Below, in pieces: positions 30,227 through 53,555 of a stretch of 64,000 bases of DNA. Location of the stretch: the sequence record MT446388.1; one strand, given 5' to 3'. Position numbers and translations under genes: made by a program. The notes under the pieces are model-generated. The model had not been told where the DNA came from, did not search any database, and saw nothing but the letters and a program-made list of their open reading frames with translations. Every line of letters starts with the position of its first letter. Within the stretch, counting starts at the first letter, position 1. Source of the DNA: Escherichia virus TH10.

Positions 30227-30742
30227 TCAACTTAGTTTTGCAAACTCTCCGTGGAGTTTAATAGCAGCTTCACAGTAAGCTTTATGGGCTTCTTCTTCCG
30301 TTGTGTATGTTCCTATATGTATAGTCTTGCCGTTATGGTTAATCTGGGCTATCCACTTACCAGACTTGCTTCTACTTGTACCTTTTAAGTTTTTTGATGT
30401 TCTAGGTTGTCTCCTATTAGACATGTTCTGTTCTTTTGTGGCCTCTCTTAGATTGTCCCAAGCGTTATTCAAACCATCTCCATCTTTGTGGTCAATGTGT
30501 TTGTCAGGCCACTTACCTGTCATCCAGAACCAAGCAATTCGGTGATTACCTGTCCTGTATCCTAAAATCTGTGTGTGCATATACACACCAGACCTTGTGC
30601 GCTTAATTGCTCCGGCTTGGCTTCCAATAACCACCCTACTACTATGTGGAGGTCTGCCAATCCATGTTAAGACCCCTGTTTCGGGGTCATAATCTAACCA
30701 AGATTTTAACTGTTCATGTGTGAATCCACAATCTCTCATCAA
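30227..30742 (-). CDS. HNH homing endonuclease with AP2-like C-terminal DNA-binding domain
   Basis: HIDHKDGDGLNNAWDNLREATKEQN HNH motif; C-terminal GTYTTEEEAHKAYCEAAIKLHGEFA; paralog of 53064..53555. Confidence 0.7.
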   Translation of the reverse strand: MMRDCGFTHEQLKSWLDYDPETGVLTWIGRPPHSSRVVIGSQAGAIKRTRSGVYMHTQILGYRTGNHRIAWFWMTGKWPDKHIDHKDGDGLNNAWDNLREATKEQNMSNRRQPRTSKNLKGTSRSKSGKWIAQINHNGKTIHIGTYTTEEEAHKAYCEAAIKLHGEFAKLS

Positions 30743-33468
30743 TGTACCTCATACCAGCTCTTACCAACCTTACCAGTACCAGTTACCAGTGTTTCTTTCT
30801 TAAGACCTAAGTTCTTAGAAGCTTGTCCATAATACCAGTCAGTAACCGCTTTCACCTCTGCCGTCATACTTTCTGGACATTCCCAACTCGTCTCATCGTG
30901 ATATGCGCAGAGTAAACGAGCACCAATAGCTGGTTTGCGACCATTCAACTTCATCAAGCCTTCGTCAATCATACGACGACAAGCAAGGTTAATCGCCTCA
31001 TTTTGAATCTGAGCCTCTGAACCCATCAAAAGATAGTTCAATAATTTGTGTGGAGATTTACACCACAACCAAGCTCCAGCAACCTTTACAAAACCACCTT
31101 TAGAGATTGCAGCGGTCTTACCAAACACCTCTTCAAGTGCCTTTTTAGTTGCTTTGTAGTCAGCTTCCAAGTTATCTAATAGTTTCTTAATCTTTGGCAA
31201 ACGCACAAAGTAAGTCTGTTTAGTTAATGCACCTTCCTGAGTAGTAGCTGCCTTAATAGTTTTAGCAAACTTCTCATCACCTGCACCGAACAGTAGTGCA
31301 TAGATACCATTCTTAGCTTTCTTACGACCTTTGCTAATCTCATGAAGAAGATTCTCATCCTGAGTAGCTCGACAAGTCAAGATATCCTGCTCATCATTCA
31401 AGCTAAAGTAAATACTGTTCAGTGTATGTGCATCAGTCCCTGAATAGACAACGTACAGGTCATTCTCAGAGTCATAGCGAAGGTACTTATCAATCTCTGG
31501 GTTTAGGTACTCATCAAAATGTTTGCAGTAATAGCGTCCATCTTCTTGACGAATGAACTCAATCTCTTCTTTACCTTGCGTTACCGCTTTGGTGAAGTCT
31601 TTATCACCCATAAAGTTACAAAGAAGAACTAGCTGGGCTGAGTTCATATCTACAGATACTACGTTGGTTCCCTCTTCACAAATCCACACTGCCCTCATTG
31701 GTTCCCCATAGACAGCAGCACCAGACGGTACGTTTACAATACCATATTGTGTCATACGTCCAGTTGAAGTACCAAACACCATTGCACCAGCACTAAGGCG
31801 ACCATCAGGACGAATCTGGTTCAACCAACCTTTTTCATCATCCTTTGAGTTCTCAATAGTTCTGCGTCTGTGCATCAAAGTGTAGTATTTAGCAATCTTC
31901 TGTCCAAGCTCACCTTCAATCGTATCATAAGATGATTCAGTAAGTTTTGGTGAAGTACGGATTAAGCAAGGCTCAAGCAAATCTGTGTATTTCTTCACAG
32001 ACCAGTTATGCTCGATGTACTGTACACCTTCATGTTCAACATAACTCAAACCACACCGCTCAATCATTTCCTGCCACTTAGGATGCTTTGTAATCATCTT
32101 TTTATTGTCTTTGAAACGACAAACTTTGACAGGGCGACCATCTGAGTCTTTCTTGTAATTCCAGTCATCTGGAATCCAACCAACTGATTTCAAGTAGTCT
32201 TTAACAACTGCTACCTGAGTCATACGAGAAACTTCAAACTCAATTGGTGTATATGGTGCATCAATCAATCCTGTGTAGCGACTTGACTCAAGTTCAAAGT
32301 GGTTAACAACATGGCTGTTATAGTACTTCACAGTTTTAACAGTTTTTACTGGCTTCCAGTCTTTGCATTTCTTACCAATCTTTGCATTCAACTCGTTGCA
32401 AATTGCACGGGCATCCTTCATTGCTACAAAGCCTTCCTTGTACTCTTCACCAGTTACAGAGTTGGTTGGTGTATAGCAATTTCTCTTTTCAATGTTAAAA
32501 ATCTTTGTAGTTGGCTTACCAAATGGCTTGATTTCGTATGTCTGCATCTCACCGTTACGTACCTGCTGACGATACTTTGTTTTAGGGTACTTGGTAATTC
32601 TCTTCAGTCCATCTGCATGACCGAATGTTTCAACATACTCATTCCAAGCTTTTGCAAACTCTTCTCCAGTGACTTTACCTTTGGTCTTAATAGTTGGAGG
32701 TAGATGTGGTTCAACCTCTGAAGCAAGCTCATTAGTCAACTTGTCAAGTTCCTTTACATGGAACTCCATAAGCTCTTTATCAGCTTTCCAGCCATTGATA
32801 GCTTGTTGACTCATCCAGAAAGATGTTTCTTTAGCTCGCATGTAGGTTTCATAAGTGTCTATGCCACACTTCTTAAGCTTGAGATATTCATTATCAAGTG
32901 CCCGTTTAGTTTTGGCGTTAATACGGATATCTTCTACAACACGAGTGAAGATTTCTGCATTCCACACACCCCAATGTTCAATCTCTGGTTTACGAACACC
33001 AACACGAGCACCCCATGCAGCCAAACCATGAGCACCTTTATAACCCTTTGGAGTTGGTCTATCCATCCACTGAACACGAGACTGGATAAGAGAATCCTGA
33101 AAGAAATTACTCCACGGTTTACACTTTGGATTATCAAAGTTCCATAAATCAGGTGCAATGTGATTGAAAACCCACCAGTCATAACCGAGGCCGTTATGGA
33201 TGCAAAGTCGTTTTGCCTTTAACGCAAACTCAACACCTTCACGTAAACCACCCTTGATGTACTTAGTGTACTTGTGACCGAGGATAGGCTCATCTGTAAA
33301 GACCCATACAGGTGGCTCTTCATCGTCAGATTTATAGTCTGCGAAAGCCATTACGTGCACTTTAGTGAACTCAAGGAGTAAACCATCAGTTTCTGTATCA
33401 CCAACTAAATGTAAGTTTTTAAAATCTACGTTTTCCATTTTTACTCCCTCTAAAATCATTAACCTCAT
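30739..33468 (-). CDS. DNA polymerase, family A, with 3'-5' exonuclease domain
   Basis: N-terminal exo I motif GDTETDGL; C-terminal Pol A motif C YHDE; 909 aa. Confidence 0.85.
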   Translation of the reverse strand: MRLMILEGVKMENVDFKNLHLVGDTETDGLLLEFTKVHVMAFADYKSDDEEPPVWVFTDEPILGHKYTKYIKGGLREGVEFALKAKRLCIHNGLGYDWWVFNHIAPDLWNFDNPKCKPWSNFFQDSLIQSRVQWMDRPTPKGYKGAHGLAAWGARVGVRKPEIEHWGVWNAEIFTRVVEDIRINAKTKRALDNEYLKLKKCGIDTYETYMRAKETSFWMSQQAINGWKADKELMEFHVKELDKLTNELASEVEPHLPPTIKTKGKVTGEEFAKAWNEYVETFGHADGLKRITKYPKTKYRQQVRNGEMQTYEIKPFGKPTTKIFNIEKRNCYTPTNSVTGEEYKEGFVAMKDARAICNELNAKIGKKCKDWKPVKTVKTVKYYNSHVVNHFELESSRYTGLIDAPYTPIEFEVSRMTQVAVVKDYLKSVGWIPDDWNYKKDSDGRPVKVCRFKDNKKMITKHPKWQEMIERCGLSYVEHEGVQYIEHNWSVKKYTDLLEPCLIRTSPKLTESSYDTIEGELGQKIAKYYTLMHRRRTIENSKDDEKGWLNQIRPDGRLSAGAMVFGTSTGRMTQYGIVNVPSGAAVYGEPMRAVWICEEGTNVVSVDMNSAQLVLLCNFMGDKDFTKAVTQGKEEIEFIRQEDGRYYCKHFDEYLNPEIDKYLRYDSENDLYVVYSGTDAHTLNSIYFSLNDEQDILTCRATQDENLLHEISKGRKKAKNGIYALLFGAGDEKFAKTIKAATTQEGALTKQTYFVRLPKIKKLLDNLEADYKATKKALEEVFGKTAAISKGGFVKVAGAWLWCKSPHKLLNYLLMGSEAQIQNEAINLACRRMIDEGLMKLNGRKPAIGARLLCAYHDETSWECPESMTAEVKAVTDWYYGQASKNLGLKKETLVTGTGKVGKSWYEVH

Positions 33469-33498
33469 ACATTACTGCAAAAAATTATAAAAAGCAAG

Positions 33499-33527
33499 TT
33501 GACAATGCACTTGACAAGGTGTTAATC
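33499..33527 (+). promoter_or_regulatory. sigma70-like promoter in divergent region (tandem TTGACA boxes)
   Basis: ttgaca 33499-33504 and 33511-33516; -10 candidate ttaatc 33522-33527. Confidence 0.4.
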
Positions 33528-33634
33528 TTTGCGAAGTGGGTTTTTACTTAAAAGGTTACTTAACAGTTTAACTATACAGATACTTTAAAACTCTTAAAAG
33601 ATTATTTAATAGCTTTTAAAAAGCTTTAAAGTAT

Positions 33635-33651
33635 AACGTATAGAATACGTT
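33635..33651. promoter_or_regulatory. 17-bp perfect palindrome (operator-like)
   Basis: aacgtat-aga-atacgtt. Confidence 0.5.
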
Positions 33652-33695
33652 AAGATAAAAGATTAAAACTTAATAGCTACTTAAAAGAGGCTTAC

Positions 33696-34118
33696 ATGCA
33701 GAAAATGTTTGTTCACCCAGACATAGCTGACTTTGTTAGAGCTTTGCAGAAGTTGGAAGAACTTGACATTGCTGCTCAACGGGAATATGCTCACCATCAC
33801 AGGAGAATGGTTGATATACAACATGAAATAGAGTTGTCTGAAGACTATGAAGATGACTTAAAATGCTCTGTATTTGAGCATATGAAAGATGTTGCTACAG
33901 CGAGACGTAAAGCTAAAGACACAGTTGCTTTACTAGATTCTCTTAAAAAGAGGTTGCAAAGTGGTACAGACCTGTGTAATCTAGCATCACTGATTAACGA
34001 TGTTGAAACTTCTTGGGATAGGCACTATTATCCACGTTCTGAAAAGACACTTGACTTTTCTTCATCCGAAAACTTAAAATGTTCTAGAAAGAAACTTAAC
34101 CAACTGAGAGAGAAATAA
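33696..34118 (+). CDS. hypothetical protein
   Basis: 140-aa ORF, first gene of rightward operon. Confidence 0.45.
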   Translation: MQKMFVHPDIADFVRALQKLEELDIAAQREYAHHHRRMVDIQHEIELSEDYEDDLKCSVFEHMKDVATARRKAKDTVALLDSLKKRLQSGTDLCNLASLINDVETSWDRHYYPRSEKTLDFSSSENLKCSRKKLNQLREK

Positions 34119-34119
34119 T

Positions 34120-34932
34120 ATGAATATCGATGTAGAAAAGATGCTTGAAGAGAAAGGTGTTGATGAAGCATTCTTAATCAATGCTGTAGAAAGCATGGCT
34201 ATGATTCTTCGTGGAAACAACTATACAGAACAGTTTATGCCAAAAAGCTATAACTTGCCTGAAGATAAAACTGATAACGGTGCTTTTGCAGAGCAGGTTA
34301 ATATGATGCTGTGCGACAAAACACTTGCTTTAGCATCTATCGTTGTAGGTGTTGATGCTCTTGCAGAGTTCATTTTTTATGAAATGCAGAAAAATGACTA
34401 TGTTGCCATGACCTCTGAAGAGAAAGACCTGCTACTACTCGCAGGTAATGATGAACTAATTAACCTGTTAATTTCATCAACGAGTGCTGTAATGGCTGCT
34501 CTTGAGAAGCGCATGGAAGAGAAACTTTCACGATATGAAAAACTTGATTGGGGCGTAGAAGAATTAAACCCACGAATCAAAGAGATTATCCAGCAAACTA
34601 AAGAGTCTTTGGAAAAAGCTGTTGAAAATGACTCTGTAGCTGATATAGAACCACTTCAGGTGAAAGTTGCACTGATGATTCCAGCTATCTCTACGATGAT
34701 GAATATCGTTGCACTAATCCAACTTTCACAGATGATGGGTGTGAGTGTTGAGTTCATTGAGGAGATGACTGGTGGCGTTAGTATGCAAGCAATCAATGAT
34801 GTTCTTATGAGCATCGGTGCATCAATTATTGAAGAGAAACTACGCATCAACTTTGGTGATGAGTTTGTGAAGCAAGTTGCAGAGATGGCTGAAAAAGAAT
34901 CTTCTCAAGTGACTGCTAAACAATTGCACTAA
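34120..34932 (+). CDS. hypothetical acidic protein
   Basis: 270-aa ORF, Glu/Asp-rich with few basic residues. Confidence 0.45.
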   Translation: MNIDVEKMLEEKGVDEAFLINAVESMAMILRGNNYTEQFMPKSYNLPEDKTDNGAFAEQVNMMLCDKTLALASIVVGVDALAEFIFYEMQKNDYVAMTSEEKDLLLLAGNDELINLLISSTSAVMAALEKRMEEKLSRYEKLDWGVEELNPRIKEIIQQTKESLEKAVENDSVADIEPLQVKVALMIPAISTMMNIVALIQLSQMMGVSVEFIEEMTGGVSMQAINDVLMSIGASIIEEKLRINFGDEFVKQVAEMAEKESSQVTAKQLH

Positions 34933-34948
34933 TCATTTATAAACTTAC

Positions 34949-34975
34949 AAGCCTCCTTAGTTGGGGGCTTTTTAG
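34949..34975 (+). terminator. terminator-like hairpin
   Basis: aagcctcc-ttagtt-gggggctt followed by ttt. Confidence 0.45.
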
Positions 34976-34992
34976 TAATTGATGGAGATAAA

Positions 34993-35736
34993 ATGAGTAA
35001 TATCATTGCATTTACTGGAAAGGCACGTTCTGGAAAGGACACCTCTTGTTCTATTGTGAAGGCTATTTTGGAAGATGAGTATGGTTACAATGTTGCAGTA
35101 ATGGCCTTTGCAGATAACCTTAAGATATCTGCTTCCAAGATATTTGACCTTACTTGGAATGACCTTTATGGTGAAACTAAAGAGACTCCACAAGTATTTG
35201 ATTTATCATACCATGAACTTATGTTTAAAGTTGCGGAAGCTATGGAGTTCACCTTCAAAGATGAGAGATACCATCTTGACTTTAAGCTTATGTCAGAATT
35301 AACCGGACGATTAATTATGGAGCTTAAAAAGGTTGCTAAACCAACTTTATTAACACGTCTGGGGTTTAGTAAAAAATATAAATTCTCATCAAGGCAAATC
35401 CAACAGATTTGGGGTACTGAAGTTATCCGTAAAGTTATGGGTGATAAATTCTGGTCTAAAGACCTTGAAAAAAGGATGGTTAACTTCTTTGACGCTTGTG
35501 CAATAAGATATCAAGATGGTGTTGTTTTAATCAGTGATTTGAGGTTTGACTCTGAAGCTGAGTGGCTTGGAAGATTTCCACACCAAACTATTGAAGTAAA
35601 AAGAGACAATGTGGATAAGATTTCGTCACATGTTTCAGAAAATGGTATTTCCACCAAATATGAGCGTGACATTATTCATAATAATGGTACTCTTGCAGAC
35701 CTTGAGAACAAGCTAAGAGCTATTCTGAAAATTTAA
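34993..35736 (+). CDS. P-loop dNMP kinase-like protein
   Basis: N-terminus IIAFTGKARSGKDT closely resembles the T4 gene 1 dNMP kinase P-loop (GVKRSGKDT). Confidence 0.55.
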   Translation: MSNIIAFTGKARSGKDTSCSIVKAILEDEYGYNVAVMAFADNLKISASKIFDLTWNDLYGETKETPQVFDLSYHELMFKVAEAMEFTFKDERYHLDFKLMSELTGRLIMELKKVAKPTLLTRLGFSKKYKFSSRQIQQIWGTEVIRKVMGDKFWSKDLEKRMVNFFDACAIRYQDGVVLISDLRFDSEAEWLGRFPHQTIEVKRDNVDKISSHVSENGISTKYERDIIHNNGTLADLENKLRAILKI

Positions 35737-35744
35737 AAGAGAGA

Positions 35745-35945
35745 ATGAAGATGAGAGTAAAAGATAATTTTAAAGTTATTGACCATCGTTTAGTGGAACT
35801 CTCATCTCTTTCCAATGAAGTGATGTTTGAACGTCTTAAAAGAGTTGAATCACGAAGGAAAGAGATTGCAGATGAGATTTATGAACTGGACAAGATTGAG
35901 AATGGTTTAAAAGCAGAACTACAACGAAGAGGTGCTAATGTCTAA
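35745..35945 (+). CDS. hypothetical small coiled-coil protein
   Basis: 66-aa ORF, ATGTCTAA-type overlap with downstream gene. Confidence 0.4.
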   Translation: MKMRVKDNFKVIDHRLVELSSLSNEVMFERLKRVESRRKEIADEIYELDKIENGLKAELQRRGANV

Positions 35946-37923: not shown

Positions 37924-38175
37924 TAGCTATAAAAGAGAGGGGTTCATACCCTTCTTTGAAGAAAAAAGTTTAAATAAATTTCAGGAAGAGTGTTTGACAA
38001 AGGTTGATAGGTTCTATAGAATGCTCTACATGAAATGTGATGGGGGTGTCGAAGTAGAGAAAAAGTCCTATCACAATACTGTCACAGTCATCATCACTAT
38101 ACCTGAACATAATATTGGTTGGCTGTTTGTAATAAAAGAAAATGTGTTTGAATATCAAGTATATCGGAGAATATC

Positions 38176-38325
38176 ATGAAACACTCTAAAGCATTTGAAA
38201 AAGTTTTTGGGGATTCCTTAAAAGCCACTGCTGGAAAACCAGCAAAATACTATGAAGAGAAGCGTGTAAGAACTGGAAAAACTGCACGCAAAGCATCTTC
38301 TAAAGATAAGCACAACTTCCAGTAA
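38176..38325 (+). CDS. small basic protein (49 aa, below ORF-track cutoff)
   Basis: ATG 38176 preceded by ggaga RBS; MKHSKAFEKVFGDSLKATAGKPAKYYEEKRVRTGKTARKASSKDKHNFQ. Confidence 0.25.
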   Translation: MKHSKAFEKVFGDSLKATAGKPAKYYEEKRVRTGKTARKASSKDKHNFQ

Positions 38326-38332
38326 TTAATGT

Positions 38333-38361
38333 TTGACAATAGAGTATCAACAAATTAGAAT
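38333..38361 (+). promoter_or_regulatory. strong sigma70-like promoter (TTGACA-17-TAGAAT)
   Basis: ttgaca 38333-38338, 17-bp spacer, tagaat 38356-38361; 37 bp upstream of 38398 gene. Confidence 0.6.
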
Positions 38362-38397
38362 TGGTACTCTTCATAAATTGAGATAGAGGTTTAAATA

Positions 38398-39255: not shown

Positions 39256-39273
39256 TCTCTAAAAAGTTACTTT

Positions 39274-39305
39274 AAAGCCCTGTACTTAGTATGGGGCTTT
39301 TTCAT
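39274..39305 (+). terminator. rho-independent terminator
   Basis: aaagccc-loop-gggcttt followed by ttttt. Confidence 0.55.
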
Positions 39306-39318
39306 ATGGAGAGCCATA

Positions 39319-40359
39319 ATGGAGAAGTACACATTAACAAAACTTCCAGATTCAGTTACACATGTCTTTATTGACTCTGACAGCATTGCCTATAAAGGTG
39401 CTTGTGTAGTTGAGAAAGCAAAGTATAAATACGTTAATAAACTCACAGCAGAAGAATCTGAACCATTTGATAATGCGAAAGATGCTGCAAGATGGTTAGC
39501 AGACCAGAGAATCCTTGTGGAAGAGCTTGGCCTGACATTTGATGAAGATGAATGGGAAAGACAAACTTGGAAAGAAGCTAAGAGTGAAAAAGAAGCTATC
39601 ATGGCTACTCAACAGGTGCTTCAGGAATGGCTTAAGATTGTTGGTAAAGAAAGAACTTGGGTAGGTTATTTAACAGAGAAGGGTGTGCATAAACATAAAG
39701 ACATTAAAGGTCTTGAGCACCAATATCAAGGTAACCGTAAAGATGCCGTCACACCAACACACTTAGTCGCTTGTCGTGAATACCTTTTATCCAGACCAGA
39801 GTTCAAGCTCTTAAAGGGGGGCTTCGAAGCCGATTCAATCGTAATTGCTAAAGCTGAAAATATGGGTAAGAAGGCTGCTCTTATGAGTATTGACAAAGAC
39901 CTTCGACAAGCTGAAGGAACTTATTGTATTGATATGACTTATGAAAAATCACCACTAATCTTTATTGCTGATAATAATGTTGGTGATATCTGGGATTGTC
40001 CTATCAAATCAAAACCAAAAGCTGCAAAAACAGTTGGTGTAGGTTTTAAATTCTTGTGCTATCAGGCTGTTGCTGGAGATAATGCAGACAACTACTTCGG
40101 ACTTAAAGGTGCTGGTAAAGTAGCTGTGATGAATGCTTTAGAGGGTAAAGAGACCTACAAAGAGTGTCTTGACGCTATCTATGAACTTTATGCTAAAAAA
40201 GATTCTTATACCTATGTGTCATGGGATGGACAGACTGTTACCAAAACACCATTAGAGTTAATGGAACAGCACTTCTGGATAGCATATCAAGAGAGAAATC
40301 CAAAAGACAATTTCTCTTTCAAGAAATATAATTGGGAGCCGTGTATGAATGAAGATTAA
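39319..40359 (+). CDS. 5'-3' exonuclease / flap endonuclease (RNase H-like, FEN family)
   Basis: N-terminal VFIDSDSIAYKG, central GFEADSIVIA and SIDKDLRQ matching FEN/T4 RNase H motif blocks. Confidence 0.65.
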   Translation: MEKYTLTKLPDSVTHVFIDSDSIAYKGACVVEKAKYKYVNKLTAEESEPFDNAKDAARWLADQRILVEELGLTFDEDEWERQTWKEAKSEKEAIMATQQVLQEWLKIVGKERTWVGYLTEKGVHKHKDIKGLEHQYQGNRKDAVTPTHLVACREYLLSRPEFKLLKGGFEADSIVIAKAENMGKKAALMSIDKDLRQAEGTYCIDMTYEKSPLIFIADNNVGDIWDCPIKSKPKAAKTVGVGFKFLCYQAVAGDNADNYFGLKGAGKVAVMNALEGKETYKECLDAIYELYAKKDSYTYVSWDGQTVTKTPLELMEQHFWIAYQERNPKDNFSFKKYNWEPCMNED

Positions 40360-40846
40360 AGGATTTGGCAATTGCCCTACCTACGGTCATTGGGTATCTT
40401 TATGTGGGGAAGTTGACCCCACTAAACATTTTGGTTTTGTCTATTTAGTATATTGTAAGAAAACCAGACAATATTATATAGGGAAGAAACAGTTTAATAG
40501 CGTGACCAAAAGAAAAGTTGCTGGCAAGACTCGGAAGAAGGTAGTCACTAAGGAGAGTGATTGGATGACTTACGAGACTTCTTCTGAGTATATTAAAAAA
40601 GATATTGAGAGCTTTGGAAAAGAATTTTTTGACTTTTACATTATCCAAACCTACTACACGAAAGGTGGTCTAGTTTATGGTGAAGCAAACCTCCAACATA
40701 AATTCGATGTAATGACAAAAAGGATTGACTCTAAGCTCAGACTCTTCTACAATGCCAACATTGCAGCAATTAAGTTTATCACTAAAGAAACTTATGAGGA
40801 TGCTGAAAAAAGAATCCATAAGGTAATGAAAGCAAATTGTGCTTGA
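40349..40846 (+). CDS. GIY-YIG homing endonuclease
   Basis: FGFVYLVYCKKTRQYYIGKK GIY-YIG signature near N-terminus. Confidence 0.6.
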   Translation: MKIKGFGNCPTYGHWVSLCGEVDPTKHFGFVYLVYCKKTRQYYIGKKQFNSVTKRKVAGKTRKKVVTKESDWMTYETSSEYIKKDIESFGKEFFDFYIIQTYYTKGGLVYGEANLQHKFDVMTKRIDSKLRLFYNANIAAIKFITKETYEDAEKRIHKVMKANCA

Positions 40847-40852
40847 TAACTA

Positions 40853-44759: not shown

Positions 44760-44814
44760 TTTTAACAACTATGAGGGTCGTAAAAGACCCTCTAAAAATA
44801 ACTTTGGAGAGAGT

Positions 44815-46142: not shown

Positions 46143-46384
46143 TGACTTATGTGATTTACTCCAAAACTGGATGCCCTCAGTGTGAGACTGCAAAGAATTT
46201 TGCAAAAGCTCGTGGTATTGACCATGTTGTGAGAATGTTAGGGCAGGATTATGAACTGTCAGACCTGATGGATATTGCACAGATGCCAGTTCGTCAGATG
46301 CCATTCATCATGAAAACTGATGGACAAAACCTAAAACCTGTTGGAACGCTACAGAATTTTATGGCAGAGGTGAATAATGCTTAA
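46142..46384 (+). CDS. glutaredoxin-like protein (NrdH-type redoxin)
   Basis: 80 aa, N-terminal YSKTGCPQCETAK CxxC thioredoxin-fold motif; coupled to nrdB. Confidence 0.7.
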   Translation: MTYVIYSKTGCPQCETAKNFAKARGIDHVVRMLGQDYELSDLMDIAQMPVRQMPFIMKTDGQNLKPVGTLQNFMAEVNNA

Positions 46385-46583
46385 ACGCCTTTGGGAAGGT
46401 CTGGTTGTTGATGCACCAGCCATTGTGATTGGTATGCTGATTGTTAACCTATTTACTGATTTTGAACAAGGTTCATTGTTTGGGGCCATGTTACTATGGG
46501 TTATCTTTGAAATATTAGAGATACAGTTAGGCATCACTGAAAAACTAAGAAAACTCGTTTCGAAGTTTTCTAAAAAGATTTAA
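46377..46583 (+). CDS. small two-TM membrane protein
   Basis: 68 aa, two hydrophobic segments. Confidence 0.4.
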   Translation: MLKRLWEGLVVDAPAIVIGMLIVNLFTDFEQGSLFGAMLLWVIFEILEIQLGITEKLRKLVSKFSKKI

Positions 46584-46587
46584 AATG

Positions 46588-46613
46588 AAAGGGTCTCTTC
46601 GGAGACCTTTTTA
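46588..46613 (+). terminator. rho-independent terminator (UUCG tetraloop)
   Basis: gggtctc-ttcg-gagacc-ttttt. Confidence 0.7.
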
Positions 46614-46631
46614 GCATGTAAAGGGGCAATA

Positions 46632-48776
46632 ATGAACAAAGTACAGATTATTAAAAAGAATGGCTCACTCGAAGAACCTGATATCAAAAAAGTTTTAGCA
46701 GCAGTCACAAAGTCAGCTAATAGGGTTGGGTATAAAGAACTCCCACCAGATGTTACTCAAGCTCTTGAGTCAGCATTTATGAGGATTCTGGTAAAGTCCA
46801 CTAAGCAGAATAATTTGCTAATTTCAGTAAATGATATTCACAGTATTGTTGAGGGTGCTTTGGCAGAAGTCAATCACGAGATTTATGAGTCTTACTCAAC
46901 ATATAGAAATTACCGTAAAGAGGTTGCTCAAAATTGGGATGAACTCTACCAGAAGACTAAAGATACACTCTTCTTAGGTGACCGTGAAAATGCTAACTTT
47001 GACAGCAGTTTAATTTCTACGAAAGGTTCAATTATCCGTGGTTACCTGACTAAAGAAATCTTTAAACAGTATCATCTAACACCAGAGGAACTTGAAGCCA
47101 TTGAGAAAGGCTTTATCTATATCCATGATTTAAGAGACCTGATTTTTGGTGGTATTAACTGTTGCCTGTTTGACATTGGTAAAGTCCTGAAAGGTGGCTT
47201 TGAAATGTCCGGCATTGAGTACTGTGAACCTAAATCTGTACTGTCAGCGTTGCAGGTTATTGGTGACGTAGTACTTTCAGCAACTGCACAGCAATTTGGT
47301 GGTTTTACTTTAGCAGAGATTGATAAGGTACTTGTACCGTATGCTAAGAAGTCTCTACGCTATCATGCTGAGAAAGCATCATCTTATGGTATTCCTAAAG
47401 AGCATTACCACAATTATGTAATGGAGCAGTTACAAATTGAATTAACTCAAGGTTTTCAGTCACTTGAAATGAAACTGAACACTGTACCTTGTAGCCGTGG
47501 TGATTTCGCATTCACAACTTTAACATTTGGTTTACTTGACTCAGACATGTCTAATGAAGACAACCGGCTACAATACATGATTGCAAACACCATTCTTGAT
47601 GTTCGCATGAATGGACAAGGTAAGAGTAAGAAGCCTGTTGTATTCCCTAAACTGGTTTATATTCATGACCAGAAGAGACACGATGAGAATATCTGTCAAG
47701 GCCAACTGTACAGTAAAGCTATTGAGTGTTGCTCTAAAGCAATGTATCCAGATTTCTTAAGCGTATCTGGTCATGGTGCTGTAGCAGAGGCTTTTGAGCG
47801 TTCTGGTAAGGTAATTTCACCGATGGGTTGCAGAGCTTTCTTATCCCCATATCTTAACGAGAATGGAGAAGAGTTCTACGTTGGTCGTGCTAACATTGGT
47901 GCTGTATCTTTGAACTTACCAATGATTTACCAGTATTCTAAAGAGAATGGCTTAGATTTCTGGAAAGAGCTTGATAAGTACCTAGAGATGATTCGCAGCT
48001 TCCACAAGAAACGCTACGAAATGATTGCTAATATGCCAGCAAGTTCTAATCCCCTTGCATTTACACAAGGTGGCCTGTATAAAGGAACTAAGAAGCCTAC
48101 TGACAGGGTTGGTTGGGATATTGTGAAATCCTTCACAGCTTCTTTTGGGGTTACTGCGCTTGATGAGCTATCTGTTCTTGCTGAAGGTAAACGACTTCAT
48201 GAAGTTGGAAGCTATAGTTTTGCATATGATGTTCTGGCATACATCAACATGAAAACTGAAGAATTTAAAAATGAAGATGGCTTCTTATATGCCGTCTATG
48301 GCACTCCAGCAGAATCACTTTGTGGAACTCAGCTAAAACAGTTCAGAGATATGTTTGGAGTTATCAAAGGTGTTTCTGATAAGGAATACTTTACAAACAG
48401 CTTCCATATGAATGTTGCAGCAGACATTACACCATTTGAGAAGCAGGACTTAGAAGAACCCTTCTTCCATATCTGTAGAGGCGGCAGAATCCAGTATGTA
48501 AGGGTAGCTAACCCAGAAAACTTGCCAGCACTTAAAAGTTGTATTACCAGAGGGATGTTGAAGGGTTTTTATCAGGGACTTAACTTTGACTTAGCAATCT
48601 GTGAACATTGTGGTAACAGACCAAAGTCAGATGTTGAAGAGTGTGAAGTTTGCCACTCACATGATATCTCTGTGATTAACAGGGTGTGCGGGTACTTGTC
48701 ATTCACAAAAATTAAAGGTCAGTCTCGAATGAATGACGCTAAGATGGCAGAAATTAAGGATAGGGTTTCTATGTAG
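46632..48776 (+). CDS. nrdD: anaerobic ribonucleotide reductase (class III)
   Basis: C-terminal zinc ribbon CEHCGN...CEVCHS followed by glycyl-radical motif RVCGYL. Confidence 0.85.
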   Translation: MNKVQIIKKNGSLEEPDIKKVLAAVTKSANRVGYKELPPDVTQALESAFMRILVKSTKQNNLLISVNDIHSIVEGALAEVNHEIYESYSTYRNYRKEVAQNWDELYQKTKDTLFLGDRENANFDSSLISTKGSIIRGYLTKEIFKQYHLTPEELEAIEKGFIYIHDLRDLIFGGINCCLFDIGKVLKGGFEMSGIEYCEPKSVLSALQVIGDVVLSATAQQFGGFTLAEIDKVLVPYAKKSLRYHAEKASSYGIPKEHYHNYVMEQLQIELTQGFQSLEMKLNTVPCSRGDFAFTTLTFGLLDSDMSNEDNRLQYMIANTILDVRMNGQGKSKKPVVFPKLVYIHDQKRHDENICQGQLYSKAIECCSKAMYPDFLSVSGHGAVAEAFERSGKVISPMGCRAFLSPYLNENGEEFYVGRANIGAVSLNLPMIYQYSKENGLDFWKELDKYLEMIRSFHKKRYEMIANMPASSNPLAFTQGGLYKGTKKPTDRVGWDIVKSFTASFGVTALDELSVLAEGKRLHEVGSYSFAYDVLAYINMKTEEFKNEDGFLYAVYGTPAESLCGTQLKQFRDMFGVIKGVSDKEYFTNSFHMNVAADITPFEKQDLEEPFFHICRGGRIQYVRVANPENLPALKSCITRGMLKGFYQGLNFDLAICEHCGNRPKSDVEECEVCHSHDISVINRVCGYLSFTKIKGQSRMNDAKMAEIKDRVSM

Positions 48777-48783
48777 CATACAA

Positions 48784-49341
48784 ATGAATTACGAACTAAT
48801 ATATAATGCAATTATTAAGAAGGCACGTTCTGAAAGGGGTGTGCCTCTTACATACTACAAATGTCAAGGTAAGGGTTATGAAAGACACCATATCATACCA
48901 GTATGTCTAGGTGGCGATAAAATTAGTGGAGATAATATTGCTTTACTTACACCTAGAGAGCATTATATAGCTCATAAATTACTGGTTAAGATGTATCCAA
49001 ACAATCATAAGTTATGGTTTGCATGGAACAGGTTAGCTCATGATGGCCTAGATAGGAAAATATCATCCAGAGACTATGAAAAGGTAAGGGCTTTGAACTC
49101 GAAAGCTCTATCTATTGTGAATAAAGGTAGGGTTTTCACTGAAGAACATCGAAGACGATTAGGAGAATCTCAAATAGGCAATACAAAATCAAAAGGTTGT
49201 AAAAGGTCTATAGAAACAAGGAAGAAGATGTCAGAAGCCGGAAAAAAGCCAAAGAAAAAGAAAACTTGCCCTCATTGTGGTATGACTGGTGGTGCTGGTA
49301 ACATGACTCGATATCATTTTGACAATTGTAAGAAAAAATAA
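48784..49341 (+). CDS. HNH homing endonuclease inserted between nrdD and nrdG
   Basis: YERHHIIPVCLGGDKISGDNIALLTPREHYIAH HNH motif; C-terminal CPHCG zinc knuckle; ORF-track version (48733) overlaps nrdD 3' end. Confidence 0.6.
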   Translation: MNYELIYNAIIKKARSERGVPLTYYKCQGKGYERHHIIPVCLGGDKISGDNIALLTPREHYIAHKLLVKMYPNNHKLWFAWNRLAHDGLDRKISSRDYEKVRALNSKALSIVNKGRVFTEEHRRRLGESQIGNTKSKGCKRSIETRKKMSEAGKKPKKKKTCPHCGMTGGAGNMTRYHFDNCKKK

Positions 49342-49505
49342 CCTTATGTAAAACTTGACAAGGTGGTGTGAGTCTTGATAGGCTTACATCACCTTTTTTA
49401 TTGGATGTTAGATATGGCAGAGAGCATCATTGGCCTGTTCATAGGTTCTGTCTTACTGGGGTTCTTTTTAGGACTCTCTTATTGTGAGTTGAGAGATAAG
49501 TTAAA

Positions 49506-49706
49506 ATGTTTAAAATATCAAAAACGTTGATATACATACTTCACATTCTAATCTTCTTTTTTGGAGTTAGTGTTATGGTATGGGGTTTTTCAGACCCACA
49601 ATGGAGTTTCGCATATCATGGTCAGATGGATTTATGGTCATGCTTCAAACCATTTTTAGGGTTAGCTATAGCATTCAGTGCATTACCAACTAAGGTGAAA
49701 TTATGA
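49506..49706 (+). CDS. small membrane protein
   Basis: 66 aa, two hydrophobic segments. Confidence 0.35.
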   Translation: MFKISKTLIYILHILIFFFGVSVMVWGFSDPQWSFAYHGQMDLWSCFKPFLGLAIAFSALPTKVKL

Positions 49707-50098
49707 TTAAGTTGAACAAAAAACAGTTAGAGTGGATTAAAGATTACGCCTCAGAGTGTGGCTCTTGCGAAAAGAATCACGTAAGATACTCAACATTCCA
49801 TACGGTCTTCACATTGTACATAGGTGACAACGTTCTAAGTGATTCCGTAGAAGATGGTGTAGCGTTGCCTAATGAATTGCTTGACAAATTAGCTATAGTC
49901 ACTGGAACTTGGTCTGAAGAAGACGGTCATGAATTATTTGACAATGTTGTCTTCTACACCATTGAAAATATTATGAATCCAGAGTACATTATGCTAATGA
50001 CGTGTGCACAAGACTGTGTGCCATTACAAAACTTCATTAAAGAACACTGTGAAGAATTTATTACTAAACAAGTTCCTTGTCAGGTAGTGTTTGAATGA
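49703..50098 (+). CDS. hypothetical protein
   Basis: 131-aa Cys-containing ORF. Confidence 0.4.
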   Translation: MIKLNKKQLEWIKDYASECGSCEKNHVRYSTFHTVFTLYIGDNVLSDSVEDGVALPNELLDKLAIVTGTWSEEDGHELFDNVVFYTIENIMNPEYIMLMTCAQDCVPLQNFIKEHCEEFITKQVPCQVVFE

Positions 50099-50133
50099 GT
50101 AAAACAATTAAATAATATTGGTGAGGTAACGAG

Positions 50134-50619
50134 ATGAATTACATGGAGATTCGACCATTTGACACAGCTAATGGTGAAGGGGTTCGGATAAGCCTCTTCG
50201 TAGCTGGCTGTAAACATCACTGTGAAGGCTGCTTTAACAGGGAGTCTTGGAAGTTTAATGCTGGTAAAGAGTTTACTTATGCAAACCTCTACGGTATCAT
50301 TAAGTTAATGGATGATAATGCCATCAGTGGGCTGTCAATACTTGGTGGAGAACCTCTGGATGATAGAAACATTCAAGAGGTTACCAACATATGCAAACGT
50401 ATTAAAACCGTTTACCCAGAAAAATCTATCTGGCTCTGGACAGGTTTTCAGTTACATGAAAAAATTCACCTTGATGTGATGAAATATGTTGACGTGGTGA
50501 TTGATGGTAAGTATGATTCATCTAAACCAACAGTTAAACCATATCGTGGTTCTGATAACCAAAACCTCTGGAGAAAAGAGTATGGATGGCAAGGCGATTG
50601 TCAATGGAGAGCCGAGTAA
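50134..50619 (+). CDS. nrdG: anaerobic ribonucleotide reductase activating protein (radical SAM)
   Basis: CKHHCEGC CxxxCxxC cluster near N-terminus; size 161 aa. Confidence 0.85.
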   Translation: MNYMEIRPFDTANGEGVRISLFVAGCKHHCEGCFNRESWKFNAGKEFTYANLYGIIKLMDDNAISGLSILGGEPLDDRNIQEVTNICKRIKTVYPEKSIWLWTGFQLHEKIHLDVMKYVDVVIDGKYDSSKPTVKPYRGSDNQNLWRKEYGWQGDCQWRAE

Positions 50620-50743
50620 GTCTCGTCGTAAAGTAGGTTATCGGTAAAGGGCACTTTACAATGTTCTACAGAACAAACTTAACCGTTTGTGTCACTGAAA
50701 AAGAACTTAAAACATTTTGTGAAAAGATTGAGAGAGATATGAA

Positions 50744-51001
50744 ATGGGACTCTGGAATAGTTTTAAATCAAAAGTAAAAGCAGCACTAGCTTCATTAGGT
50801 ATGCTCACTGGTGTTGATGTGACTCACCTTATGCAGAACTTCAATATGGATGAGAAGCTGGCTAATGAGATTATGAAAAGTATCTATGTAGGCCGTGGTA
50901 AAGGTGGTAAGAAACAAGCCCACCGTCCGTCTGGTGCAGCAGCTATTAAACGAGCAGCTAAGAAAGCTCGTAACCGTAAACGTAATAAGAAGGCTAAATA
51001 A
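50744..51001 (+). CDS. small protein with highly basic C-terminus
   Basis: GRGKGGKKQAHRPSGAAAIKRAAKKARNRKRNKKAK tail. Confidence 0.4.
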   Translation: MGLWNSFKSKVKAALASLGMLTGVDVTHLMQNFNMDEKLANEIMKSIYVGRGKGGKKQAHRPSGAAAIKRAAKKARNRKRNKKAK

Positions 51002-51003
51002 TC

Positions 51004-51324
51004 ATGAGCAAAGTTTATAACACTCGTAAATTACAGATTTTCGTACTGTGCCAGTTTATGGCTAAAGAATATAACTTCTACTATTGTGGCACAGGATTCA
51101 TTAGTGACGATGATGGCTCGTATCTACCATTCAAAGAGGCTGTAAAACTCTTCAATGAAGAGAAAAGCTCTAAGAAAGATATTGAAAAGGTTAAGCTAAC
51201 CTACAGCAAGAAAGATAAGAAGATTATCTGCCTAGATAACTTTGTAAAAGTTACTGGAGAAGCAAAAGAGTTTATGGATGAGAGTGAGATTTCATTCACA
51301 AGCATCTTGAAAGTAGCTCAGTAA
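51004..51324 (+). CDS. hypothetical protein
   Basis: 106-aa ORF followed by terminator. Confidence 0.45.
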   Translation: MSKVYNTRKLQIFVLCQFMAKEYNFYYCGTGFISDDDGSYLPFKEAVKLFNEEKSSKKDIEKVKLTYSKKDKKIICLDNFVKVTGEAKEFMDESEISFTSILKVAQ

Positions 51325-51335
51325 ATAGATACTAT

Positions 51336-51366
51336 AAGGGAACTGTAAAGGTTCCCTTTTTATTTT
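51336..51366 (+). terminator. rho-independent terminator
   Basis: gggaac-tgtaaag-gttccc-tttttatttt. Confidence 0.65.
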
Positions 51367-51375
51367 GGAGATGAT

Positions 51376-51891
51376 ATGTATCTGTCAAACCTAAAACGTT
51401 CTGCTGCAATGTCAGTGTTAAGACTCAGCTTTGAGGAACGTCAAGAGTTCATTGACTCCCACCAATACGACCCTTCCAACTCCAATCACATGATTCTCTG
51501 GAATCGTGAGAGTACTCGTGAAAGAGCATTATTCCGATATTACCCACACTACACCATAGATAACCTGTATGAATGTTTTGTTGTGAAGAACACCATTACA
51601 GTGCTCAATAAACTCTGTAGATACACAGGCAGTCAATCCTTCACATTAGGCCATCACAAACCTGTTACAAAGGGTGGTGAGCATCACTGTGCAAACTGGT
51701 TTATTCAGACTAAACTTGATAACCAGAAGCAAGGGGATAACCTTCTAAGCACCCCTAAGATGACCTACGAAGAGCAAGAGAAATATATCAAAAATAATAT
51801 GCCAGATGTGCTTGACAACAACTATACAGATTTGGCAATATCTCTCCTGTTGAAGTTCGAGACAGTTTATAGGGCAACTTACAATGGCTAA
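51376..51891 (+). CDS. hypothetical protein with HNH-like nuclease motif (candidate)
   Basis: LGHHKPVTKGGEHHCANWFIQTKLDNQKQGD resembles an H-N-H core. Confidence 0.35.
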   Translation: MYLSNLKRSAAMSVLRLSFEERQEFIDSHQYDPSNSNHMILWNRESTRERALFRYYPHYTIDNLYECFVVKNTITVLNKLCRYTGSQSFTLGHHKPVTKGGEHHCANWFIQTKLDNQKQGDNLLSTPKMTYEEQEKYIKNNMPDVLDNNYTDLAISLLLKFETVYRATYNG

Positions 51892-52162
51892 AGAAAAGTG
51901 GGAGATTTTACCATTAGTCAGTGAAGGTGGTAATGGTTGTGAGATGTACATGATACGTGGTCATGTTCCAGAACCAATTGCGCTTGAGATGGTAAACAAC
52001 TTTACAGATGGTTCTTACAAAGACTTAGGAGAGCCAACTATAAAGCATCAATGGGTAAAACCTGTACCAGACAGCACAGGTAACTGTAGTGTACTTTACC
52101 ACGTTGTAGACCCTGTAAAATGCAAATCTGCAATGGCAGTAACAAGCGTAACCTTTGATTGA
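51884..52162 (+). CDS. hypothetical protein
   Basis: 92-aa ORF. Confidence 0.4.
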   Translation: MAKEKWEILPLVSEGGNGCEMYMIRGHVPEPIALEMVNNFTDGSYKDLGEPTIKHQWVKPVPDSTGNCSVLYHVVDPVKCKSAMAVTSVTFD

Positions 52163-52173
52163 GAGACAAAACT

Positions 52174-53055
52174 ATGAAAACTGTTATTGAAGCCGTCGTC
52201 ACCGCACAAGAGAAATTCTTCCACACAGAAAAATTTAATATCATCCAATTCCCATCTGGAGAAATTGGTGGAAACTTCTCTGAAGATTTTGTTAAGTTTA
52301 CTGAGCGTAATGCTGGTAAGATTGACAATGTTATACTTACTGTGCAGGGATATGATAAAGATACACTGTTTGCATTAGCTTTGGCTAAGGATGCCGTTGA
52401 CAGTCTTGTTCCCCAGAAATCAGCGATGAAAACCGTTGTTTTCGGGTTCTTACCAAATGCTCGATATGACCGCCACATGTTCAAAGGTGATGCAGCAGCA
52501 CTGAAAGTCTTTGCCAACCTAGTTAATGCAATGGGCTTTGATGCAGTATGTGCTCTTGACCCTCACAGCAATGTTGCAGAAAACCTATTTAAGTGCTTTC
52601 AGAGCATGAAGCAAAAAGATGTGGCAGTACACTTTGCAAGTGACCCACGCATTGATTTCTTGGTAGCCCCAGATGCAGGTGCAGCTAAGAAGACTGAAGA
52701 GACTGCTAAAGAGGTGGATAAACCATATATCACAATGTCTAAAATGCGTAACCTTAAGACTGGTGAAATTACTGGTATGCGAATCCTTGATGATGTTGAT
52801 TTGACCGATAAAACTGTTATGATTCTCGACGATATCTGTGATGGCGGTCGAACCTTCATAGAAGCAGCTAAACATCTTCGTGAAGCAGGTGCAAAACGTG
52901 TGGAACTCTATGTAACTCATGGCATTTTCTCTAAAGGTGTTGAAAGCTTACTTGACAATGGTATTGACCATATCTACACTACAAACACTTTAGGTGAAGC
53001 TAAAGACCGTGGCTTAACACATTACGGTCAAGTGACTGTAGCAACCATTGATTAG
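52174..53055 (+). CDS. prs: ribose-phosphate pyrophosphokinase-like protein (PRPP synthetase family; ADPR-pyrophosphokinase possible)
   Basis: PRPP-binding loop VMILDDICDGGRTF; ATG 52174 after gagaga RBS. Confidence 0.75.
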   Translation: MKTVIEAVVTAQEKFFHTEKFNIIQFPSGEIGGNFSEDFVKFTERNAGKIDNVILTVQGYDKDTLFALALAKDAVDSLVPQKSAMKTVVFGFLPNARYDRHMFKGDAAALKVFANLVNAMGFDAVCALDPHSNVAENLFKCFQSMKQKDVAVHFASDPRIDFLVAPDAGAAKKTEETAKEVDKPYITMSKMRNLKTGEITGMRILDDVDLTDKTVMILDDICDGGRTFIEAAKHLREAGAKRVELYVTHGIFSKGVESLLDNGIDHIYTTNTLGEAKDRGLTHYGQVTVATID

Positions 53056-53063
53056 GTAACAGT

Positions 53064-53555
53064 ATGAATAAGGGTTATTTTGAAAGATACCTAATATATG
53101 AACCAGATACAGGTTTATTAATTTGGAGAGTAACCCTTTGCAGTACCGCTATTGCTGGTAATGTGGCTGGCACAAGGTCTAAGAAGGGTTATACCCAAGT
53201 CCAGATAAATAAGAAGAGGTACTATGCACATAATATTGCATGGATTATGTCTGGAGGTGAGATACCAAGTGGATATGAGATAGACCACATAGACCTTGAT
53301 AAATCTAATAATAAGTTGGATAATTTAAGACTTAGCACAAAGTCACAAAATCAGAGGAATAGGGGTATATACAAGAATAATAAAACTGGTGTGAAGGGTG
53401 TAAGTTTTTGTAAACAAACAGGTCTTTACAAAGCAAGAGTCATGCTTTACCATAAAGAATACTTTTGTGGAAGATTTAAAACGGTAGAAGAAGCAAAAGA
53501 AGCTGTAATTAAAAAGCGAATAGAACTTCATGGTGAGTTTGCAAGACATAACTAA
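53064..53555 (+). CDS. HNH homing endonuclease with AP2-like C-terminal domain
   Basis: YEIDHIDLDKSNNKLDNLRLSTKSQN HNH motif; C-terminal EEAKEAVIKKRIELHGEFA shared with 30227..30742. Confidence 0.7.
   Translation: MNKGYFERYLIYEPDTGLLIWRVTLCSTAIAGNVAGTRSKKGYTQVQINKKRYYAHNIAWIMSGGEIPSGYEIDHIDLDKSNNKLDNLRLSTKSQNQRNRGIYKNNKTGVKGVSFCKQTGLYKARVMLYHKEYFCGRFKTVEEAKEAVIKKRIELHGEFARHN

Follow-up and report, generated by a model that had tools for sequence, protein, structure and literature searches.

The three HNH open reading frames (ORFs) of this Felixounavirus (FelixO1-like) genome are likely free-standing homing endonuclease genes, whereas its GIY-YIG ORF likely represents a vertically inherited core nuclease, probably with a fixed, non-homing role. 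A sequence-only reading had proposed at least four homing endonucleases here: the three HNH candidates stand, with patchy carriage, exact insertion sites, intact motifs and low divergence, but the GIY-YIG candidate does not, given its fixed site, its background-level divergence and its lack of a DNA-binding domain. All four ORFs are real and each carries the domain assigned to it; no more endonucleases came to light among the ORFs tested, as a phmmer search of every six-frame ORF in the window (the whole 64,000-nucleotide stretch analysed), using the four proteins as queries, returned just those four, and no further endonuclease was detected among 30 other ORFs of the window that were scanned with Pfam and PHROG. 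NCBIfam gave zero matches for any of the four nuclease proteins, and a tRNA search of the window found none.

Over 200 GenBank phages share 93-95% identity with the window; 206 GenBank records span at least 80% of positions 30000-54000, mostly at 90-95% identity, and phage DR094 is collinear with the window over 1-48762, with no additional gene-sized insert. Near-identical copies of all four nuclease genes are already annotated in GenBank and these are thus known elements: the annotated Felixounavirus HNH genes are the same genes at the same sites, differing in nothing substantive, at 98-99.6% nucleotide identity for the HNH-AP2 genes and 99.5% protein identity for the nrdD-side gene. Examples include the 'MobE-like HNH homing endonuclease' of phage Barry and the 'HNH endonuclease' annotated between prs and nadV in FelixO1, VpaE1 and Si3. 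FelixO1 itself has been described with six HNH genes (PMC3185647), and 'Bacteriophage Felix 01' is a cited source of HNH-AP2 proteins in the literature on AP2 origins (PMC6781369, its ref. 53).

The HNH genes fall into two families, HNH_3+AP2 (two genes, 'a' and 'b') and a T4 Mob-like HNH with NUMOD3 and a zinc finger (one gene), and each forms a precise ~0.5-kb insertion where pol, nrdD or prs ends, at the stop codon:

30227..30739, minus strand: probable HNH_3+AP2 free-standing homing endonuclease gene 'a', assigned from domains, motifs and carriage, directly downstream of the DNA polymerase gene
30231..30732: segment missing from the 'empty' allele of AYO145A (pairwise alignment; AYO145A promoter annotation)
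30739..33468, minus strand: family A DNA polymerase gene (pol), uninterrupted in the window
46632..48776, plus strand: nrdD (anaerobic ribonucleotide reductase), uninterrupted (NRDD, 2.3e-114)
48695..48776, plus strand: recoded nrdD 3' end ('haplotype 2'), beginning right after the codons of the RVCGYL glycyl-radical motif
48770..49344: segment missing from the empty alleles of SapYZU01, ASO1A, ev108 and phiWec174 (alignment)
48784..49341, plus strand: probable T4 Mob-like HNH homing endonuclease gene, with an HNH motif, NUMOD3 and a C-terminal CxxC...HxxxC zinc finger
49360..49395, plus strand: terminator-like hairpin, annotated as a terminator in ASO1A
50134..50619, plus strand: nrdG (radical-SAM activase; Fer4_12, 3.4e-43)
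52159..53055, plus strand: prs (ribose-phosphate pyrophosphokinase; profile search)
~53055..53565: segment missing from the empty alleles of IME338, DaR-2019a and SUT_S720, from the prs stop to the nadV start; limits approximate, as some 40 nt of the empty alleles' short spacer are aligned within it (53282-53321)
53064..53555, plus strand: probable HNH_3+AP2 free-standing homing endonuclease gene 'b', between prs and nadV
53572..55353, plus strand: nadV (nicotinamide phosphoribosyltransferase; profile search)

Comparison with endonuclease-free relatives, which the earlier reading had suggested, defined all three insertion sites. Each HNH gene is intergenic, running from the stop codon of an intact gene to the start of the next and not lying inside an intron or intein, and the empty alleles are clean joins. 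The proposed setting beside polymerase, ribonucleotide reductase (RNR) and NAD+ genes is likewise confirmed, the neighbours being a family A DNA polymerase, a phrog_107 exonuclease, NrdA, NrdB, NrdD, NrdG, Prs and a NAPRTase-family NadV. In its combination of sites, this genome has three occupied and at least three empty (inside pol, at the exonuclease 3' end and inside nrdD).

Gene 'a', originally read as 30227..30742, is present but lies on the minus strand and likely starts at the ATG at 30739 rather than at the TTG at 30742, overlapping the pol TGA by 1 nt (TGATG); the segment missing from AYO145A lies in the interval that separates the pol stop codon from a promoter-like TTGACA belonging to the downstream genes. 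The 30227-30742 ORF matches HNH_3 (1.3e-14) and AP2 (2e-9, above the Pfam gathering score), and gene 'b' matches HNH_3 (2e-19) and AP2 (4e-4, at 21 bits under the 33.3-bit Pfam gathering score), with the HNH_3 matches of both covering the whole profile. The two had been called paralogs on the basis of shared N- and C-terminal strings, and indeed they have these strings in common and are full-length paralogs (39% identity, E 3e-27), the DH...N...NLR...N columns being invariant in 8/8 aligned HNH-AP2 paralogs. In VpaE1, Si3, SUT_S720 and phiWec174 pol is split by an insertion, and comparison of the pol 3' region is confounded by this second insertion site within pol.

The third HNH gene had been placed on the nrdD stop as a separator of nrdD from nrdG. 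It does lie between the two, but starts 7 nt past the nrdD stop codon and does not abut nrdG, from which it is parted by the terminator hairpin and three small ORFs. A 7-nt repeat (TATGTAG / TATGTAA) marks the junctions of the segment missing from empty alleles. In those alleles the hairpin directly follows the nrdD stop, whereas in the window it follows the HNH gene, which thus sits inside the nrdD transcription unit. Its product matches NUMOD3 (6e-5) and phrog_655 'homing endonuclease' (9e-58) and, weakly, the colicin/pyocin HNH DNases. The HNH motif residues H35/H36...N51...H60/H64, together with C162, C165, H178 and C182, match columns that are 91-99% conserved in 97 homologs (96-99% for the H35/H36, N51, H60 and H64 columns alone).

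This protein is 39% identical to T4 MobD over 125 residues (E 1e-14), and its relatives are annotated as MobE-like. In the products of the T4 mob genes, too, an HNH nuclease precedes a C-terminal DNA-binding region, and the genes are likewise intergenic in the RNR cluster, where mobE lies between nrdA and nrdB. T4 mobE is promoterless and co-transcribed with its upstream gene (PMC2790892), which the nrdD-side gene resembles in being apparently promoterless and in being placed after the nrdD stop but ahead of its terminator. The nrdG/nrdD interval also houses mobC in T4 (PMC2988022, Table 1), so that the RNR placement is, as had been claimed, a classic one. The T4 genes differ in belonging to Tevenvirinae rather than Ounavirinae and the insertions are not orthologous; furthermore, the MobE nick in nrdB was mapped experimentally, whereas the nrdD 3' end is here a predicted target.

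Each HNH gene is carried by some 20-25% of related records: 50/257 for 'a' in the allelic form seen here, 61/253 for 'b' and ~48/238 for the nrdD-side gene, the last counted as copies at least 90% identical. Between carriers the genes retain 96-99.6% nucleotide identity (97.7-98.6% for 'a'; 98.8-99.6% for 'b' in four carriers), compared with 72-100%, commonly ~90-95%, for their flanks, and dS values are 0-0.14 versus 0.1-0.7 for the neighbouring genes. Copies up to 99.6% identical thus sit in genomes whose flanks are 5-20% different, which argues for recent transfer.

These data also bear on whether the HNH ORFs are passengers that were once mobile, are now inactive or without targets, and are kept because precise deletion is rare. 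Homing endonuclease genes commonly end up stranded in this way, as with the defunct T4 I-TevIII (PMC2790892), and truncated or shortened copies occur among the relatives: DaR-2019a has a 339-nt 'homing endonuclease', Si3 a 177-nt 'HNH endonuclease' and VpaE1 a 1-nt indel. The window copies, however, are full length, catalytic and zinc-binding residues are intact, in answer to the earlier concern that catalytic residues might be lacking, and dN/dS falls well short of 1 in every comparison with a measurable dS. Targets are moreover plentiful, since most relatives keep empty sites, and together with the signs of recent transfer this makes stranding rather improbable.

Purifying selection on gene 'a' is strong (dN/dS ~0-0.05), which would also be compatible with a role that benefits the phage. 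At least one HNH protein could accordingly have been co-opted, whether for AP2/NUMOD3-based regulation, for attack on host or competitor DNA, or as a source of promoters for downstream genes. Many relatives have the pol 3' site filled, each by one of three or more diverged HNH-AP2 alleles that share their last 22 residues, and T4 endonuclease genes can embed promoters of essential downstream genes (PMC2988022). None of the genes is required, however, because each is missing from 75-80% of very similar viable phages, and no regulatory target was identified; we regard co-option as quite improbable.

We therefore retain homing endonuclease genes as the likely identity of the three HNH ORFs, each of whose products combines its nuclease with a separate DNA-binding module, AP2 in 'a' and 'b' and NUMOD3 in the nrdD-side protein, which also has the conserved CxxC...HxxxC. 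Apparently placed, with exact fit, at a conserved gene's stop codon, such a cassette would be transcribed together with that gene; no convincing promoter of its own or strong ribosome-binding site was seen for any HNH gene, and consensus promoter scans around these genes gave weak matches in near-background numbers, on which we place no reading. In a mixed infection, the enzyme would nick or cut a related phage's allele that lacks the endonuclease gene, within the adjacent conserved gene or close to it, and recombinational repair off the carrier genome would then copy the endonuclease gene along with neighbouring flank. We found no cleavage, nicking or inheritance data for any Felixounavirus endonuclease in the literature; cleavage, target sites, gene conversion and marker exclusion are predictions, and the marker exclusion in mixed infections put forward by the earlier reading is a reasonable analogy with T4 (PMC2988022, PMC2790892).

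At nrdD, the copied flank would include the recoded last ~80 nt of the gene, which are presumably uncuttable. This haplotype 2 is ~70% identical to the allele of four endonuclease-free genomes, compared with ~94% for the remainder of nrdD, with a sharp boundary at 48695; the window and 4/4 other carriers examined have haplotype 2 and 4/4 empty genomes have haplotype 1. Strict linkage between haplotype 2 and the HNH gene is nevertheless rejected at the population level, where haplotype 2 occurs at ≥95% identity in 92 records versus ~48 with the HNH gene, and Meda and SEP1 combine it with a precisely empty HNH site. As it is also found without the HNH gene, haplotype 2 could represent an older lineage of alleles instead of a patch conferring immunity. 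At the prs/nadV and pol sites, the few genomes examined give a mixed picture of flank association.

The GIY-YIG gene presents a different picture. As the earlier reading had it, it follows the exonuclease gene (there called 'FEN'), which it overlaps by 11 nt:

39319..40359, plus strand: 5'-3' exonuclease (phrog_107, 1.9e-63)
40349..40846, plus strand: SegE-type GIY-YIG nuclease, domain only, 165 aa, a core syntenic Ounavirinae gene

At the exonuclease 3' end, relatives often have an additional HNH-AP2 gene that the window lacks.

On the earlier proposal, this ORF would be, like the other three, a free-standing homing endonuclease that is still mobile and drives marker exclusion. The protein belongs to the SegE_GIY-YIG family (PF19835, 4.9e-27; residues 21-138 of 165) and keeps all of its family-invariant residues (G29, F30, Y32, Y43, G45, K47, W72, Y75, S78, E112 and N135). 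It shares the N-terminal nuclease domain of T4 Seg proteins such as SegE, including the conserved Tyr, Tyr, Glu and Asn positions; its best fold match is the I-TevI catalytic domain, a PDB sequence search giving chance matches only. Longer family members (230-360 aa) resemble complete Seg-type enzymes, and the gene is annotated as 'GIY-YIG homing endonuclease' in some relatives; the widespread label 'NAD synthetase' is a mislabel. Unlike the Seg proteins, however, it lacks the C-terminal DNA-binding extension, which is carried by more than half of the best 150 family representatives, those exceeding 190 aa. Identical placement in all relatives, named at the outset as telling against mobility, is found for this gene and not for the HNH genes: it occupies one fixed site in essentially all Felixounavirus records, being present in every one among the matches listed (222 records matched its locus), and the exonuclease-GIY-MazG gene order is the same in Moogle-like phages (87% identity) and in Erwinia phage phiEa104 of another genus (63%). 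Its nucleotide identity of 89-97% between relatives, again unlike that of the HNH genes, reflects divergence at or above background, and dS of up to 0.70 with dN/dS of 0.03-0.06 points to the strong purifying selection of a housekeeping gene. Current mobility of all four ORFs is therefore highly improbable.

A non-homing role could lie in host DNA degradation, as for T4 endonuclease II (DenA), feeding the adjacent nucleotide-metabolism module. The GIY-YIG protein is a domain-only nuclease of about DenA's size, encoded among exonuclease, MazG and RNR genes, and endonuclease II adjoins the RNR genes in T4-like phages too. Homology to an annotated endonuclease II protein is nevertheless rejected at an hhalign probability of 0.3%, the Pfam family is that of SegE and not DenA, and evidence for such host DNA breakdown by FelixO1-like phages was not found, which leaves a DenA-like enzyme unlikely. 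Similar domain-only relatives are found in hundreds of T4-like cyanophages, and we tentatively suggest, at somewhat short of even confidence, that the core nuclease may be a domesticated enzyme that serves DNA or nucleotide metabolism in a fixed role other than homing.

Beyond good annotation, the importance of these findings is slight. FelixO1-like phages find use in the typing and biocontrol of Salmonella and E. coli, and their mosaicism is known to stem in part from homing endonuclease genes; such genes also complicate large-phage phylogenies (PMC8594841). Modestly useful are the base-exact cassette boundaries, the candidate target region at the nrdD glycyl-radical motif and the recognition of the GIY-YIG gene as a conserved core nuclease that deserves a corrected name, with the caution that a nuclease domain alone does not establish the mobility of a gene. 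Were domestication of the GIY-YIG protein true, a whole branch of a 'homing endonuclease' family would really consist of housekeeping enzymes.

All four nuclease ORFs that the sequence-only reading had taken for selfish homing endonucleases are present in the window, where they encode the following products:

30227-30742, minus strand: pol-side HNH-AP2 gene, an HNH_3 domain followed by AP2
40349-40846, plus strand: GIY-YIG gene, Pfam SegE_GIY-YIG (4.9e-27)
48784-49341: nrdD-side HNH gene, combining an HNH motif with NUMOD3 and, at the C terminus, a zinc-finger-like CxxC...HxxxC; phrog_655 'homing endonuclease' (9e-58)
53064-53555: prs/nadV HNH-AP2 gene, HNH_3 followed by AP2

Phmmer searches with the four queries and Pfam/PHROG scans of the other ORFs revealed no further nuclease-type ORF in the window. 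The two HNH-AP2 ORFs, previously linked through shared terminal segments, are full-length paralogs with 39% identity, and the pol-side copy most likely starts at ATG 30739, in a one-base overlap with the pol TGA. The neighbours are likewise as described, namely family A DNA polymerase, 5'-3' exonuclease (phrog_107), NrdA, NrdB, NrdD, NrdG, Prs and NadV, and a MazG-like protein is also encoded among them. The nrdD-side HNH gene does lie at the end of nrdD, starting 7 nt past its stop, but it does not directly contact nrdG (50134-50619), as a terminator hairpin and three small ORFs intervene. The nrdD-nrdG interval (49345-50133), with small membrane-protein ORFs in the window, varies across relatives: Meda carries a different 111-aa ORF in place of the small ORFs, Si3 and SEP1 lack them, and VpaE1 and ASO1A have an additional ~300-nt ORF ahead of nrdG. 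The window also encodes a Macro-domain protein (62857-63642; Pfam 3e-7), which lies ~7.5 kb downstream from prs and nadV, the genes of NAD+ salvage, and may be connected with host defences that act through ADP-ribose or NAD+.

In a nucleotide search, 268 phage records match the 30-54 kb stretch, nearly all of them Felixounavirus (FelixO1-like myoviruses of Salmonella, E. coli and Shigella), and 206 of the 268 cover at least 80% of it at one place, mostly at 90-95% identity. Salmonella phage vB_Si_DR094 is collinear with window positions 1-48762 except at the locus that follows pol downstream and in a divergent stretch of tail-fibre sequence; the latter (19731-20965), without nucleotide match in DR094, is probably a host-range variable region. 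FelixO1-like sequence 91-98% identical to the window also occurs in GU169904.1 (Staphylococcus phage SA1), MG065664.1 and MG065668.1 (Campylobacter phages A132 and A126), which are probably chimeric or contaminated assemblies.

Comparison with relatives lacking each endonuclease resolves all three HNH genes as precise, patchy insertions, with base-exact boundaries at the pol and nrdD sites. The segments missing from empty alleles, as defined by alignment, are:

30231-30732: pol side, flanked by the pol stop and by a promoter-like TTGACA belonging to the genes downstream; empty in AYO145A
48770-49344: nrdD side, flanked by the nrdD stop and by the terminator hairpin of nrdD
~53055-53565 (approximate): prs/nadV, after the prs stop and ahead of the nadV start; empty in IME338 and DaR-2019a

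A 7-nt TATGTAR repeat is found at each junction of the nrdD-side segment. Using each HNH gene with ~500 bp of flank on either side as query, we found the pol-side HNH-AP2 allele in 50 of 257 records, the others being empty or having another HNH gene there, and the prs/nadV gene in 61 of 253; the nrdD-side locus is covered in full in 31 of 238 records, and copies of its HNH protein at 90% identity or more occur in ~48. No convincing promoter of their own or strong ribosome-binding site was seen for any of the three, which in lacking a promoter resemble the co-transcribed T4 mobE (PMC2790892); many T4 seg and mob genes are listed as promoterless and co-transcribed (PMC2988022). Across phages, three or more diverged HNH-AP2 alleles with 44-52% protein identity occur at the pol-3' site (window 30227-30300; sequences from related phages L001:30451-30978, L005:828-1379 and L011:728-1261), whose last 22 residues are identical in all (EEAHKAYCEAAIKLHGEFAKLS), a pattern suggestive of recombination or homogenisation inside the 3' end of the gene.

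Rather than degenerate relics, the three HNH genes retain intact catalytic and metal-binding residues: DH...N...NLR...N is unchanged across eight Felixounavirus HNH-AP2 paralogs, and in the nrdD-side protein H35/H36, N51, H60, H64 and four zinc-ligand positions match columns 91-99% conserved among 97 homologs. Furthermore, the HNH genes are 96.4-99.6% identical among carriers, with flanking bins ranging from ~72 to 100% (typically 90-95%), and their dS of 0-0.14 compares with 0.1-0.7 in the exonuclease, GIY-YIG, nrdG and MazG genes, the outlier being one older prs-site allele in ASO1A. Their dN/dS is well under 1 wherever dS is measurable, and on these sequence comparisons all three appear to be active genes that spread by recent transfer.

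Over the last ~80 nt of nrdD, the window and four other carriers (VpaE1, Si3, DaR-2019a and SUT_S720) agree at 92.5-100% identity, whereas four empty genomes (ASO1A, ev108, phiWec174 and SapYZU01) reach only ~70% there, against ~94% for the remaining nrdD. The break is sharp at 48695, directly past the codons of the glycyl-radical motif RVCGYL, and the ~24 differences between the haplotypes are mostly synonymous. Such recoding would be expected of an enzyme that recognises the conserved nrdD sequence in empty genomes, with the carriers' version refractory and co-converted with the HNH gene. The association is one-way, however, as ~92 records have the recoded haplotype (at least 95%) against ~48 with the gene, and Meda and SEP1 combine it with a cleanly empty site. 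The recoded haplotype without the gene is compatible with partial conversion tracts or gene loss, and equally with an older allelic lineage; we therefore treat the nrdD 3' end as an inferred target of the nrdD-side HNH. Flank patterns at the prs/nadV and pol sites are mixed among the few genomes compared, and the pol 3' comparison is confounded by a second insertion site within pol. The prs gene (52159-53055) is ~81-83% identical to most close relatives and 96% to SUT_S720 and is, judged by these identities, a local mosaic block adjoining the HNH-AP2 insertion.

The GIY-YIG gene occupies the same place in every Felixounavirus record among the matches listed (222 records match the locus), with the one exception of divergent phage CHB7, which matches only the exonuclease part of the query; some relatives score lower because an additional HNH-AP2 gene separates their exonuclease and GIY-YIG ORFs or because their exonuclease 3' end has diverged. 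By tblastn, 253 records hold the protein at 80% identity or more; Moogle-like phages of Shigella and Citrobacter have it at 87% and Erwinia phage phiEa104 has it at 63%, in the same gene order (primase/helicase, hypothetical, exonuclease, GIY-YIG gene, small ORF, MazG, nrdA). At the nucleotide level the gene is 89-97% identical to its counterparts in relatives, no higher than its neighbours are; its dS reaches 0.70 and its dN/dS (0.03-0.06) is like that of exonuclease, MazG and nrdG. An exhaustive profile search returned 2260 representative clusters, and 63 of the best 150 are domain-only proteins of at most 190 aa like that of the window, the others being extended at the C terminus in the way that DNA-binding modules would be expected to do. 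Residues G29, F30, Y32, Y43, G45, K47, W72, Y75, S78, E112 and N135, at least 97% conserved, are all present. Given these conserved residues, the fixed site and the background divergence, the product is very likely an active nuclease, but one encoded by a fixed core gene and not by a mobile element; a site shared by all relatives is what the sequence-only reading had itself named as refuting. Kinship with T4 endonuclease II was rejected by profile comparison. Hundreds of phage records, among them those of many T4-like cyanophages, name the family (phrog_447) 'NAD synthetase'; domain analysis detected no NAD synthetase domain in the window protein, so the label looks like a propagated misannotation.

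The window is itself empty at three additional endonuclease sites occupied in relatives, in pol (30739-33468), at the exonuclease/GIY junction (~40340-40360) and in nrdD (46632-48776). An insertion ~555 nt from the 3' end splits pol in VpaE1, Si3, SUT_S720 and phiWec174; an HNH-AP2 gene separates the exonuclease and GIY-YIG genes in VpaE1, ASO1A, Si3, DaR-2019a and FelixO1; and an HNH gene splits nrdD in Si3, SUT_S720 and phiWec174. The exonuclease 3' end exists as two haplotypes (~76-82% vs ~95%), partly tracking the extra HNH gene.

The published description of FelixO1 has six HNH endonuclease genes (PMC3185647), a subsequent comparison reports two or three per genome (PMC8300805), and 'Bacteriophage Felix 01' HNH-AP2 proteins are cited in literature on plant AP2 domain origin (PMC6781369, citing its ref. 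53). Near-identical copies in GenBank relatives are labelled 'MobE-like HNH homing endonuclease', 'HNH endonuclease' and 'GIY-YIG homing endonuclease', and in T4 mobC occupies the nrdG/nrdD interval and mobE the nrdA/nrdB interval, the T4 seg and mob genes explaining the marker exclusion of T2 (PMC2988022, PMC2790892). The window's endonuclease genes are therefore already known in kind, one more example, from a densely sampled genus, of a phenomenon that is well described. The homing interpretation holds for the three HNH genes, which are precise, patchy and of low divergence, but not for the fixed GIY-YIG gene with its background divergence; by analogy and from the population patterns, the HNH genes would act through cleavage and gene conversion and would cause marker exclusion.
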